Shown: positions 10,143 through 13,891, counted from the first letter of the stretch. The stretch is DNA of 49,931 bases from an uncultured Halobacteriales archaeon (GCA_964403315.1 CAYOFZ010000001.1:1-49931), one strand, 5' to 3'. The notes: generated from the sequence alone by a model not told the origin. Program-made: numbers and translations.

Positions 10143-10790
10143 ATGAGACGGCGCACGGTGCTCGCTGGGGCGGTCGTCGCACTCGCCGGGTGTGCATCCG
10201 CCAGCGATCCATCGACGGACGACAACGCCAGCGGGACGGGTAACGGTGGGACTGACAACGGTGGCGACCCCGACGGTGGCGACGATGAGACGGGGACGGG
10301 GTGGTTCGACACCCGCGAAATTGAAGCGGCGTTCCTCGAACGTTACAATTCGATGCGCGAGGAACAGGGACTCGCGACCACCTCACGCGACCGTATCCTT
10401 TCCGAAATGGGGCAGGAACACGCCGAAAACATGGCCGAGAATGACTACATCGGGCATCAACAGCCCGACACCGGTATGACCATTGCGGACCGGTACGAAC
10501 GGCGAGGACTGTTGCCGAAGTGCGAGCTCCCCACGGACGACGGCTCGGGGTCGTACTACCCCGGTGCCGAAAACGCCGCCGGGGCGGCCGTCGGCCGCGT
10601 CACGCACCCCGGCACCGACGAGACGTTTACGGTGGTCGCGAACGACGACGTGGCCGAATTCTTGATGTCGTCGTGGATGACGTCGCCCGGCCACCGTGCT
10701 GTCATGGAGTTAACCGCCGTCCGGCGCATCGGGCTCGGGACGGCGGTTCGCGACGATGGGGAGATATTCGCGGCGTTAGAGTTCTGCTGA
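10143..10790 (+). CDS. Tat-signal lipoprotein with CAP/SCP (PR-1-like) domain
   Basis: MRRRTVLAGAVVALAGC (twin-Arg plus lipobox). CAP-type motifs HAENMAENDYIGH and WMTSPGHRAVM. Confidence 0.75.
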   Translation: MRRRTVLAGAVVALAGCASASDPSTDDNASGTGNGGTDNGGDPDGGDDETGTGWFDTREIEAAFLERYNSMREEQGLATTSRDRILSEMGQEHAENMAENDYIGHQQPDTGMTIADRYERRGLLPKCELPTDDGSGSYYPGAENAAGAAVGRVTHPGTDETFTVVANDDVAEFLMSSWMTSPGHRAVMELTAVRRIGLGTAVRDDGEIFAALEFC

Positions 10791-10791
10791 A
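10742..10791 (+). repeat. direct repeat copy A (3' end of the CAP-domain gene)
   Basis: 43/50 identical to 13842-13891. Encodes AVRDDGEIFAALEFC-stop. Confidence 0.8.
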
Positions 10792-10835
10792 ATGCGGCGA
10801 GTTGTTCGCGCTGTTCGACCCCCACCGAACGGGGC

Positions 10836-12014
10836 TCACTCCGCCGCCCGTTGTGCGATATTGATCGCCGCGTTCACGTCGGCGTGAACCTCATACCCAC
10901 ACCGCGTGCATGCGAACGCGTCCCCGCGTCGGTATTCGGGATTCGTCTGTTCGCACTTTCGACAGGTAATACTCGTGTTCCGTGGGTCGACGACCGACAC
11001 CGGGATCCCTTCGGCCGCGGCCTTGTACGCGATCTTTTCCTGCAAGAGCGCGAACGGCCAGTCGTGAATCGGATCGCGTGCCGTTTCGCGGTAGTGCGTC
11101 AGATTCTCGATTCGAATTCCGACAGGTGTGTGTCCGGCGGCGAGGTCGACGATCGACCGGGACGCGGTATCGAGCACCTGCTCGGTGTATTTGCGCTGTT
11201 CGTCGCGGGACTGCTTGAGCCCTCGAAGGTCGTCCTGTTGCATCAGGCGCTCACGCTTGCGCTGTAGGCGTTCGCGGTAGTGGCGGAACTCCGCGCCGGA
11301 TTCCATTTCGACGGCCGCCACGCCGTCGCTGTCGACCACCGCGGCCGCATAGATCACACTCTCGCCGATGTCGACGCCAACTGTGGTCGTTGCGTCCGCC
11401 GGCCTGTAGACATCGACGGGCCATGAAATCGGGACGTGGGCGGTGAGTCGCCCGCCGTCCGACAGGTGAAACTCGGCGGTGCCGTGGCTCGCGTCGCCGC
11501 CCGTGACGCGTTCGAGATAGTCGCGGACGTACGGCCGCGGTGAAATGTGAAACCACTCGGGTTCCCACGGGATGAAATTCGCTCTTAGGCCGAAGCCGCG
11601 GTCGTTCTCGACGATCGTGACGTTTTGATTATCGAGCATGAAATACTCGCCGTCGCCGAACGTCGGCCGCTCGCCACCGTCGCCGAGGGCGCGACGGGAC
11701 TGAAACGCGGCCGCGACGTGCCGCGTCGCGGCGAGTGCCACTTTCGCCCCGACCGTTCGCCCGTCGGTGGGGAACTCTCGCGTTACCAAGCGGTACAGCG
11801 TCGGGTTGTTCGGCACCCGTTCGTGCGGCGGTATCGACGCCATCATATCGGCGAGATACGAACACATCGCCTGAAACTCGTCGATCGCGGTTTGGACCTT
11901 CGCGTTCTTTCGCTCGCTCGTCTCAAGCGGGATAACGACCGTCTGTGTGACTGTTTCGGTGCCGGTGCCGGCCGCGTACTCGGTGAGCACCTGCTGTGTT
12001 TCAGTCGTCGCCAT
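10836..12014 (-). CDS. tnpB: TnpB (IS200/IS605-family OrfB, IS1341-type RNA-guided nuclease)
   Basis: RuvC triad present (VGVDIGE, IRIENL, HADVNAAINI). Zinc ribbon CRKCEQ..CTRCGYE. Start set at MATTETQQ (ATG 12014) rather than the track start at 12146. Confidence 0.85.
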   Translation of the reverse strand: MATTETQQVLTEYAAGTGTETVTQTVVIPLETSERKNAKVQTAIDEFQAMCSYLADMMASIPPHERVPNNPTLYRLVTREFPTDGRTVGAKVALAATRHVAAAFQSRRALGDGGERPTFGDGEYFMLDNQNVTIVENDRGFGLRANFIPWEPEWFHISPRPYVRDYLERVTGGDASHGTAEFHLSDGGRLTAHVPISWPVDVYRPADATTTVGVDIGESVIYAAAVVDSDGVAAVEMESGAEFRHYRERLQRKRERLMQQDDLRGLKQSRDEQRKYTEQVLDTASRSIVDLAAGHTPVGIRIENLTHYRETARDPIHDWPFALLQEKIAYKAAAEGIPVSVVDPRNTSITCRKCEQTNPEYRRGDAFACTRCGYEVHADVNAAINIAQRAAE

Positions 12015-12135
12015 CGTCGAACTCCTCAACCGCGGCGGCGAAAAACTCCTCCCACGTCCACCCGTGGGCATCCTTTGTGTTCCGCGCCCGTTCGGCCAGA
12101 TCGTCGTCGACGGCGACGTTGATGTGTGTAACCAT
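12001..12135 (-). CDS. small ribbon-helix-helix-like protein overlapping the tnpB start
   Basis: 44-aa ORF, not in the track: MVTHINVAVDDDLAERARNTKDAHGWTWEEFFAAAVEEFDDGDD. Beta-strand plus helix pattern of CopG/Arc. Its last 14 nt overlap the tnpB start. Confidence 0.45.
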   Translation of the reverse strand: MVTHINVAVDDDLAERARNTKDAHGWTWEEFFAAAVEEFDDGDD

Positions 12136-12692
12136 GTTTGACACATTACTAAGTTAGACCGTAAGATACTTAGTAGTTCCCATCCTTGTATTGAACAAGT
12201 CGGTCGTGGCTATATGTCACGCGCCGATACGCGGCTCTTCACCGCGCGTCGTGGGTCGATGTTATCCGCGGCGAGCTCGCCCGCCGTTACGCCCGGTAGG
12301 CTGGATCTGGCTTAGATGCATGGGCACGGATCTGCCGCCCGCGATCTGCCGCCGGGATAGGCGAAAAGAGGCGCATAAACAGCGCCCGGCTCACAGCAGT
12401 ACTACACCAACAGCGGTTGGGGCACAGGCAGTCTACCGCCGACGTGGCCCCGGAAATTACACACCACGCGCCTGCCACGGAGCGCAGGGGGAAGGAACCT
12501 TTCACGCCACGAGCGAGCACCCCACCATATATTGAGGGGCGGACACCACACCGCCCCGGAGAATGGAAAAAGAAACCTATTCATCGGAACCCGTTTCGTC
12601 GACCCCTCGGCAAACAACCGAGATCGACAGTCGACGGAGATTGCGGTTCCATATCAACCGAAAGAGTGTCTGAAACGGCTGTATCCGGCATG
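12136..12692. promoter_or_regulatory. divergent intergenic region: AT-rich promoter patch (12136-12200) and CRISPR leader
   Basis: No credible CDS (the ORFs here are Arg/Pro-rich). AT-rich stretch next to the RHH start. TATA-like ATATATT near 12527. Confidence 0.35.
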
Positions 12693-13172
12693 GTTAGAGA
12701 TAGACCCTTGCGGGGTTGGAGCGCATATTATTACACATTGCTCAGTCACCCCTCGCTAGTTAGAGATAGACCCTTGCGGGGTTGGAGCGCACGCCCGGCG
12801 GCGTCGCGGGTTCGTTCGCGGAAGTTAGAGATAGACTCTTGCGGGGTTGGAGCGGTCATATGAACGCTCAATGTACCGATTTCACCGGTTACAGATGTAC
12901 CCTTGCGGGGTTGAAGCAGCGCGTCGAATTCGATCGCGTCGACGACATCCTCGTTACAGATGGACCCTTGCGGGGTTGAAGCGCGCACCGAAACCCCGAC
13001 GGCGAAGAGCCGTGGGACCGGTTAGAGATAGACCCTTGCGGGGTTGAAGCACGCCGACTCGAATCCGTCGAGGAGCACAGCGCGGACGTTAGAGATAGGC
13101 TCTTGCGGGGTTGGAGCGATCAATTGAGTGACCGGCACTCGGGTTACAGATGTACCTTTGAGGGGTTGAAGC
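12693..13172 (+). CRISPR. cas-less CRISPR array, 8 x 30-nt type I-B-like repeats, 7 spacers
   Basis: Repeats start at 12693, 12759, 12824, 12888, 12953, 13021, 13088 and 13143. Consensus GTTAGAGATAGACCCTTGCGGGGTTGGAGC or GTTACAGATGTACCCTTGCGGGGTTGAAGC. Spacers are 36, 35, 34, 35, 38, 37 and 25 nt. Confidence 0.9.
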
Positions 13173-13179
13173 TGCTGAA

Positions 13180-13806
13180 TTACAGCACGGTTAGCAATAG
13201 ATACGCGACACCGACGAGCGCGATCGCCAACACAACCAGTTGTTGCCACGGCGGCAGCTCCTCGAACGCCACCGTGTCGATCGTTGGGCTCTGGCCATCC
13301 GGACCGACAAGCCCGCCCGGAGACGCGGCCACGGCGTTGCCCCGCTGGTTGCTATCTCGTCGTCCCATCTCCGCAGTGGGTTTGTGGACAAAGCGAACGG
13401 GTGCTTTCATCTCCATGCCCATCTCCCGGTCGGTGTAGTCCCGCTGGAGCCGCCGCCAGCCGCTCATATCGTCAATCCCACAGGCACAGACGATCACGCC
13501 GTCGTATTCGTTCCGATACTCCTCGATTTGCCCACGGAGCTTCTTTGCCTGACTGTTCGTGAAGTTCCGTTTGAGTTCGATCCCGACCGTATCATCGACG
13601 GCGAGATCGGCGTTCACCCGGCCGTGTTCACGCTCGACGACGTGCGTGCCCGACGATCCCAACATACCGCCGCGATTCAATGTTTCGTCGAGGTGGTGCT
13701 GTAAATCCTGCTGGAACCCACGCTCGTGCTCGTAGGTGTCGCCCGGCACCCACGATTCGACGGCCTCGCGTGTTCTGCGGCCGATCGCCCCCGGTCCAGT
13801 TGCCAT
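13180..13806 (-). CDS. PD-(D/E)xK nuclease-fold protein with C-terminal TM anchor
   Basis: 208-aa ORF. EHERGFQQDLQHHL helix, then NADLAVDD..VGIELK (D..ExK). C-terminus LVVLAIALVGVAYLLLTVL. Stop lies 7 nt from the last CRISPR repeat. Confidence 0.55.
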   Translation of the reverse strand: MATGPGAIGRRTREAVESWVPGDTYEHERGFQQDLQHHLDETLNRGGMLGSSGTHVVEREHGRVNADLAVDDTVGIELKRNFTNSQAKKLRGQIEEYRNEYDGVIVCACGIDDMSGWRRLQRDYTDREMGMEMKAPVRFVHKPTAEMGRRDSNQRGNAVAASPGGLVGPDGQSPTIDTVAFEELPPWQQLVVLAIALVGVAYLLLTVL

Positions 13807-13841
13807 GCCCCCTATGATCGCGAGGTTGTTTTAACAGTTGG

Positions 13842-13891
13842 GGCGGTGCGAGACGACGGGGAGGTATTCGCGGCGCTTGAGTTCTGCTAAA
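13842..13891 (+). repeat. direct repeat copy B (orphan 3' end of a CAP-gene homologue)
   Basis: Encodes AVRDDGEVFAALEFC-stop in frame. 6 of 7 differences from copy A are synonymous. Confidence 0.8.

Follow-up and report, generated by a model that had tools for sequence, protein, structure and literature searches.

A diverged 50-bp repeat at a cargo junction in a putative haloarchaeal tailed virus, and the conserved tnpB, structured RNA and CRISPR array module beside it

Tailed phages are mosaics whose accessory genes, or 'morons', are acquired by illegitimate or short-homology recombination followed by selection (the Hendrix/Juhala model). Deletion-coupled insertions have been described in Haloquadratum walsbyi (PMC3119063). 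The locus analysed here lies in a stretch of 49.9 kb from an uncultured Halobacteriales archaeon (GCA_964403315.1, CAYOFZ010000001.1:1-49931), hereafter the window, which is an entire NCBI contig in which no terminal repeats were seen. A 50-bp direct repeat (copy A, 10742–10791; copy B, 13842–13891; both on the + strand) encloses a tnpB gene, a CRISPR array and a nuclease-like gene, and it is situated where, in relatives, a gene for a CAP-domain lipoprotein is followed by one for a TAT-signal protein. The repeat is probably a pair of orthologous copies of this CAP–TAT junction from two virus lineages, with recombination having stacked two blocks of cargo at a hot spot and the core of the first block having been a pre-assembled module. 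As with phage morons and the Haloquadratum insertions, varied cargo occupies one conserved intergenic position, with its own or a duplicated promoter and short direct repeats at the borders, and homologous but diverged segments lie within a common gene order. Unlike phage morons, the window keeps three diverged partial copies of the junction in tandem, and coding sequence from the 3′ end of the upstream gene is part of what was duplicated. The replicon itself is a haloarchaeal tailed virus or provirus, given the head–tail-like gene arrangement upstream of the CAP gene region, a tail-tube gene among related contigs and a relative deposited in GenBank as a 'Haloquadratum phage' metagenome-assembled genome.

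The module in the first block is real, is conserved from viruses to the plasmid of a cultured strain and is, to our knowledge, undescribed; a literature search returned no description of a tnpB–RNA–type I-B array module. As delimited by comparison of relatives, it consists of tnpB, an optional 44-aa gene, a structured RNA region of ~380 nt and an array headed by a type I-B leader core. Virus-borne CRISPR mini-arrays use host Cas proteins in conflicts between viruses, with 1–2 spacers and no tnpB (Medvedeva et al. 2019, PMC6858448; review PMC11656645). The window array resembles them in lying in a viral genome without cas genes and in having host-type (type I-B) repeats and leader core, but it has 7 spacers, its relatives reach 37 repeats (on a viral contig) or 48 (on plasmid pNG300), the array is always joined to tnpB and to a sizeable region of structured RNA, and no spacer target was found. 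In an archaeal RHH/MazE-TnpB clade, the RuvC-III aspartate is replaced by histidine and a long 3′ untranslated region is the putative guide (Altae-Tran et al. 2023, PMC10691335). The window locus shares with that clade a small RHH-like gene (fold unconfirmed) that lies immediately upstream of tnpB and overlaps it, and it occurs in one copy per locus, apparently not as a typical mobile insertion sequence; the window TnpB, however, keeps the aspartate and has no conserved 3′ region, its conserved RNA is on the upstream side, and the locus includes an array. Conserved associations of Cas12 with arrays almost always have the array downstream, according to a paper that left out arrays belonging to other CRISPR types (PMC10691335), which may explain why the present module has gone unreported. 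Type V-U/Cas12f-like systems (PMC10691335) are similar in combining a TnpB-sized nuclease (392 aa in the window) with conserved array linkage and no adaptation genes, whereas the window has type I-B repeats and a type I-B leader core, an anti-repeat was not found and the array is upstream and divergent. PATE non-coding RNAs, which are linked to IS1341-type tnpB, occur in haloarchaea and in halovirus HRTV-DL1 (bioRxiv 10.1101/2022.10.18.512658). Compared by description only, they too are non-coding elements of ~0.4–0.5 kb tied to tnpB in viruses and hosts; unlike them, the RNA region occurs once per locus, at a fixed place between tnpB and the CRISPR leader.

The CAP gene (10143–10790, + strand; 215 aa; Pfam CAP, 6e-10) is the last conserved gene ahead of the junction. 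Its protein has 77 relatives, the closest of which (60–74% identical) come from halophilic metagenomes, a Natronomonas metagenome-assembled genome and the 'Haloquadratum phage' assembly. A scan of the GTDB species genomes with the protein gave distant bacterial relatives only, and no match was obtained in scans of IMG/VR with the CAP protein and the CAP alignment or in a tblastn search of the protein against phage records. Copy A is the native 3′ end of this gene with its stop codon, and copy B is an orphan consisting of the last 15 codons and stop of a diverged CAP gene. The two copies are identical at 43 of 50 positions, and identity drops to 12/60 upstream and 15/60 downstream, giving the repeat sharp borders; such a pair is expected by chance at ~3e-9 in a window of equal size and composition. 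The longest identical stretches are TATTCGCGGCG and GAGTTCTGCT (11 and 10 nt), the same cores that the original prediction, made from this sequence alone, had named. Read in frame, copies A and B encode AVRDDGEIFAALEFC and AVRDDGEVFAALEFC, each followed by a stop, and the terminal segment DDGEIFAALEFC with its stop forms the C-terminus that this CAP family conserves. Silent changes, among them that of TGA to TAA, account for six of the seven substitutions, and when 7 random substitutions were simulated, only 3e-4 of the runs kept the stop with no more than one amino acid change. Because nearly all of the differences are silent, copy B derives from a genuine, divergent CAP gene, as the original prediction had proposed, and did not arise by fresh duplication of a target site.

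Copy B, an orphan gene end, is not preceded by CAP sequence, as would also be expected if the CAP gene had been duplicated within this genome and the second copy had then been reduced by deletion and decay to a remnant. Decay, however, should have produced random changes, whereas the observed silent pattern with a kept stop has P ~3e-4; the spacer that follows copy B is closer to that of a related contig (L025) than to the third junction copy of the same genome; and none of the fetched CAP loci contains two CAP genes, the window being the only one among them with an orphan CAP end. Of the explanations weighed here, duplication within the genome is the one with least to commend it, and it has only the slightest chance of being correct.

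The original layout of the junction can be read from relatives that carry no cargo. Empty junctions, made up of the CAP stop codon, 44–50 nt with a TATA-like box and the ATG of the next gene, were sought and found in at least seven related contigs: L025, L027 and L042, in which the next gene was translated and encodes a TAT-signal protein homologous to that at window positions 15730–16446 (+ strand), together with L043, L045, L046 and L047. The ancestral order is therefore CAP followed directly by the TAT-signal gene. An ancestral order of CAP followed by the FkbM-type methyltransferase gene, which had been suggested from the proximity of copy B to that gene, does not survive this comparison, as the FkbM gene occupies the ancestral promoter and ATG. 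Of the two findings that would have counted against the original prediction, neither was made: empty sites exist, and copy B does not belong to a larger duplication of the CAP gene.

Relative to the empty junctions, the window has the layout CAP–J_A–block 1–J_B–block 2–J_C–TAT-signal gene, in which the three J segments are partial copies of the junction. J_A comprises the CAP end (copy A), and homology to the ancestral spacer is gone within ~12 nt past its stop; the 44 nt between the convergent CAP and tnpB stops (10792–10835) are not homologous to the ancestral junction. This short interval has a G+C-rich hairpin, GACCCCCACCGAACGGGGCTC, at 10817–10837, which may serve as a shared terminator. 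J_B starts with copy B, which is abutted at the breakpoint in the relic CAP gene by a 35-nt stretch (13807–13841) without CAP homology that lies upstream of the 208-aa gene and is probably its promoter. Past the repeat, the alignment of copy B to L025 continues through the full spacer up to the ATG at 13935, so that the rest of J_B (13892–13937, + strand) corresponds to the ancestral 44-nt promoter spacer and ATG, now those of FkbM; the last ~20 nt of this spacer are almost identical in the two sequences (CGAATCGGCAGG[C/T]ATG). J_C (15687–15729, + strand), the third copy of the spacer and promoter, lies in front of the TAT-signal gene, after FkbM and the 303-aa gene, and is preceded by a T-run. 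Its first 23–24 nt repeat positions 13891–13914 if two single-base indels are allowed. J_B and J_C are equal at 33 of 47 positions, about the level seen when orthologous spacers from separate viruses are compared (27–38).

FkbM and the 303-aa gene are bracketed by a second direct repeat, ATCCGGTGTGGCCGCTTTTCATAC (13891–13914) and ATCGGTGTGTCCGCTTTTATACC (15687–15709). This repeat is a duplicated promoter spacer of the ancestral CAP–TAT junction.

Elsewhere among the relatives, different cargo occupies this position. In L039–L041 a 72-aa membrane gene on the opposite strand occupies the junction, and in L044 a 580-bp insert with a 140-aa open reading frame directly follows the CAP stop and is bracketed by a direct repeat (846–874 and 1426–1454), which begins at the last base of the stop codon, has 20 identical leading bases and matches at 25 of 29 positions overall. 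The CAP–TAT junction is a hot spot for recombination and cargo in this haloarchaeal tailed virus family. Junction repeats vary both in length (20–29, ~24 and 50 nt) and in their position within the junction, and no recombinase gene was seen in the window segment or in the other junction inserts, as far as these were looked at. Because of this variation and the lack of a recombinase in the inserts examined, the repeats are best regarded as by-products of recombination.

That junction cargo is repeatedly bracketed by direct repeats (50 and ~24 nt in the window, 20–29 nt in L044) would also fit the insertion of circular cassettes. A circle carrying block 1 and a foreign CAP 3′ end could have recombined with the resident CAP 3′ end, either in the Campbell manner or site-specifically, thereby duplicating the CAP end; the identical cores of 11 and 10 nt within the 50-bp repeat and the diverged state of copy B, as expected of an incoming homologous segment, are in keeping with this. 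The segment, however, has no recombinase gene, and repeats of 20, ~24 and 50 nt at differing positions do not resemble a fixed attachment site, observations that also tell against the earlier proposal of site-specific recombination inside the CAP 3′ end. Moreover, copy B runs on into the ancestral promoter spacer and ATG, which are junction sequence and not cassette sequence, and the other module copies that were checked (L072 and L030) have no flanking repeats, so that the 50-bp repeat does not delimit the tnpB–array module, as it had been taken to do. Cassette insertion is thus unlikely, though it is the strongest of the alternatives.

In the recombination that we infer instead, related viruses with different cargo at the junction would have exchanged segments, stacking two blocks in the window genome: block 1 (~10792–13841), comprising the tnpB module and the 208-aa gene, and block 2 (~13938–15686), comprising an FkbM pseudogene and the 303-aa gene. 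Three partial junctions would have been left, J_A as the CAP end, J_B as the last 47 nt of CAP with its stop, the 44-nt promoter spacer and an ATG, and J_C as the promoter spacer and the ATG of the TAT-signal gene. Breakpoints would have been staggered in the parental genomes, and recombination products would have survived only if the upstream gene retained a complete 3′ end and the downstream gene a complete promoter and start; staggering combined with such selection would place the stretch that separates the breakpoints at either side of the insert. The core of block 1 would have arrived pre-assembled, and the 208-aa gene independently of it. The repeat itself is an ordinary, if unusually legible, scar of viral mosaicism. 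If read in this manner, it displays, at the level of single bases, how accessory genes come to be stacked by related archaeal viruses at one conserved junction while the neighbours are kept intact, which is useful but not surprising.

The module was followed through relatives of its TnpB, of which 296 were found at E ≤ 1e-60. The order array, leader, RNA region and tnpB is present in L060–L069, L070, L072, L029/L031, L030 and plasmid pNG300 of Haloarcula marismortui ATCC 43049, that is, in every lineage with sequence upstream of tnpB, down to 48% TnpB identity. The array comprises 4–16 repeats in L060–L069, with spacer content that varies between samples; 7 repeats of another variant in L072, a viral contig; 37 in L029/L031 (TnpB 55% identical); 23 in L030 (TnpB 48% identical), which has a tail-tube gene downstream; and 48 in pNG300 (TnpB 48.6% identical). 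In L071, tnpB and the RNA region are present and the contig stops short of the leader. Approximately 560 nt of non-coding sequence upstream of the tnpB unit are conserved throughout, with a mean column identity of 75%, and the flanks of the module differ in each locus. The original prediction of a portable package that combines the gene of an RNA-guided nuclease with a host-dependent array thus holds, with the same order in all relatives that have upstream sequence and with unrelated flanks. No cas genes were found in the fetched module loci, in a search that did not include pNG300, and the whole 49.9-kb window contains no cas homologue. Having no cas genes, the array would have to depend on a type I-B system of the host. 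Megablast and blastn searches of the region against phage and plasmid records returned the repeats and a short piece of tnpB, and nothing further.

On pNG300 (L073, NC_006391.1), a second annotated transposase of the IS200/IS605 family (449 aa, 25009–26358) lies directly downstream of the array-linked tnpB and is convergent with it.

The window tnpB (10836–12014, − strand) encodes 392 aa that match the Pfam Cas12f1-like TNB domain (PF07282, 1e-20) and the NCBIfam guided_TnpB model (102.4 bits, cut-off 100). As read from the sequence, the RuvC-like motifs VGVDIGES, IRIENL and HADVNAAINIA are intact and paired CxxC motifs are present; HADVNAAINIA, which contains the RuvC-III aspartate, is retained in 5 of 5 aligned relatives. 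The tnpB start overlaps by 14 nt the 44-aa RHH-like gene (12001–12135, − strand), which is likewise overlapping in all examined relatives with TnpB 71–81% identical, is kept in 5 lineages at 66–89% identity to the window copy and is absent from the pNG300/L030 lineage. Its RHH fold was not confirmed by Pfam, NCBIfam or PDB profile searches. Between this gene and the RNA region, an A+T-rich stretch with TATA-like boxes that is poorly conserved in alignments (12136–12196) probably holds the promoter or promoters of the 44-aa gene and tnpB, and possibly also promotes a + strand RNA. On the opposite side, sequence 3′ of the tnpB stop shows no conservation among relatives 71–81% identical, and the last 90 tnpB codons have no excess of synonymous conservation (0.50–0.58 against a mean of 0.50). 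With the 3′ flank unconserved and the synonymous sites unconstrained, this TnpB shows no sign of a canonical 3′ guide-RNA scaffold.

A conserved, covarying RNA region of ~380 nt (12197–12576) was found in tnpB-linked loci only, in one copy in the window and one per locus as detected by nhmmer. Besides the window it is present in L061, L070, L071, L072, L029, L030 and pNG300 (23195–23791; nhmmer E 4e-114). Over seven lineages, 91.7% of cells at 85 predicted pairs are paired, against 38–48% when partners are slid, and 32 pairs show changes on both sides, against 4–9 in the slid controls; none of 500 shuffles attained the observed pairing and covariation values. Folding energies are similar on both strands. 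For the 59 pairs predicted on either strand, reading on the tnpB strand gives 20 A·C mismatches and 4 G·U pairs, and because the mismatches outnumber the wobble pairs the evidence leans towards transcription of the region in the direction of the array (+ strand). The sequence GGAAAAAGA(A/G)A, which is invariant and reads TTTCTTTTTCC on the tnpB strand, marks the array-side end of the region. No Rfam family was matched at a permissive threshold, and when a 29-base signature was used to scan IMG/VR, the only contigs returned were three that were known before. A search of the conserved region for an anti-repeat of the kind found in tracrRNA was negative, the longest complementarity between leader and repeat being 8–11 nt including G–U, approximately as expected by chance and without co-variation across lineages. 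Since the tnpB 3′ end has no guide-scaffold signal, the upstream RNA is the sole candidate partner, and it is the likeliest guide-RNA scaffold for this TnpB.

These features bear on a second route that had been put forward for the origin of the repeat, homing triggered by TnpB, in which a 3′ guide RNA reading into the CAP end would direct cleavage of empty junctions and repair would copy the cassette in. The nuclease is apparently catalytically intact, its stop codon is ~45 nt from that of CAP, and homing is reportedly an established role of IS200/IS605 TnpB, as Meers et al. (2023; cited in PMC11656645) are said to have found. The tnpB 3′ flank, however, is unconserved and the last 90 codons lack synonymous constraint, and the sole conserved RNA is on the other side of the gene. 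For the candidate guides adjoining this RNA, variable segments of 20–24 nt at both of its ends, no further match was found in the window, the fetched loci or the fetched junctions. Insertion of IS200/IS605 elements leaves no target duplication, and the 50-bp repeat is not a product of this family. Homing is accordingly a highly improbable source of the repeat.

The array (12693–13172, + strand) consists of 8 repeats of 30 nt and 7 spacers of 25–38 nt, with matches to Rfam CRISPR-DR24 and to arrays of haloarchaeal plasmids. Its repeats are of two kinds, GTTAGAGATAG...GGAGC (repeats 1–3 and 7) and GTTACAGATG...GAAGC (repeats 4, 5 and 8), repeat 6 being a hybrid that ends in GAAGC, and the final spacer is truncated to 25 nt; this mixture of variants and the truncated last spacer suggest recombination between arrays. 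Immediately upstream, ~105–115 array-proximal nt (12577–12692, + strand) match both leaders of H. marismortui plasmid pNG400 (nhmmer E ~1e-8, and blastn). The pNG400 arrays are linked to cas genes (cas6-cas8b-cas7-cas5-cas3-cas4-cas1-cas2), and they share with the tnpB-linked loci the array-proximal ~105 nt and not the RNA region. Since only this part is shared, 12577–12692 is a genuine type I-B leader core and 12197–12576 is specific to tnpB loci, which makes the 'leader' of the original prediction a composite of RNA region and leader core. Its gene list for the interval between the repeat copies otherwise stands, with the reservations that the RHH fold is unconfirmed and that the PD-(D/E)xK assignment of the third gene comes from a motif and weak fold matches.

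One spacer of L066 equals 22 of 23 nt of the gene just downstream of tnpB in L060 (3439–3461; also in L062–L064 and L068), which hints at targeting of sibling elements.

All statements on the function of the module are ones that we infer from its composition and conservation. The balance is about even for an arrangement in which the array is expressed and extended by a type I-B system of the host and, like known virus-borne arrays, serves competition with other mobile elements, TnpB and the upstream RNA being a separate, co-inherited RNA-guided nuclease unit. A more doubtful, though conceivable, arrangement is that tnpB, the covarying RNA and the type I-B leader and array form one functional unit, in which a TnpB nuclease is coupled to an array of another type and either draws guides from it or maintains and spreads it. 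If this were so, the module would represent an independent and still TnpB-sized step from transposon nuclease towards CRISPR, with the guide-RNA gene upstream of tnpB. Should the linkage be functional, it would bear on the route by which TnpB nucleases turn into CRISPR effectors and on the carriage and spread of arrays by viruses. The linkage persists between deeply diverged lineages, both in viruses and in a strain that can be cultured (pNG300), and is directly testable in genetically tractable archaea.

Several observations weigh against the overall interpretation given here, of stacked junctions and a pre-assembled module. No relative was found with block 1 alone or block 2 alone at the junction, so that the parental genomes are hypothetical, and the recurrence of repeat-flanked cargo (twice in the window, once in L044) could instead be the outcome of circular cassettes inserting by short homology. 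The close relatives are without exception metagenomic contigs, and many of these are short. None of the window spacers had a target in the loci that were fetched, in phage records or in IMG/VR.

The remaining gene of block 1 (13180–13806, − strand) encodes a 208-aa protein with a PD-(D/E)xK-like core, assigned by motif and weak fold matches, and a C-terminal transmembrane helix. Residues E60, D67 and E77-x-K79 are invariant. When an AlphaFold2 model (pLDDT 82.5) was searched with Foldseek, the best matches, which were to XPF/Hef, YaeQ and restriction endonucleases, were weak (E 0.009–0.2, TM 0.2–0.4), and the protein had no Pfam or PDB sequence match and no match in an IMG/VR scan. Its closest relatives are at most 55–58% identical. 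In Halorubrum (L032–L038) the relative is a lone low-G+C gene between sdhB and sdhA, with neither array nor tnpB nearby, and in H. trapanicum (AP017569.1 2288245–2300847) the insert that carries it adjoins a phage-type integrase. At this place other tnpB–array loci carry either different genes or no gene at all. The 208-aa gene is thus an independent solo gene outside the conserved module: of the three functions that had been thought to travel together, tnpB and the array do so, whereas the PD-(D/E)xK-like gene occurs alone elsewhere and is absent from other copies of the module.

Block 2 begins with the FkbM-type methyltransferase gene (13935–14764, + strand), which has a frameshift near 14256–14276. 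Its reading is split over two frames (LSKLNP and ETPVVGLEPE), as fits one base missing in AACCCGAG, and the frameshift denotes either a pseudogene or an assembly error. The second gene of the block (14761–15672, + strand) encodes 303 aa with a sub-threshold hint only of glycosyltransferase family 8. Beyond J_C, the 3′ half of the TAT-signal gene and the sequence just past it (16000–16700) have a G+C content of ~0.50, compared with 0.62 window-wide, and may be an exchanged segment related to host range.

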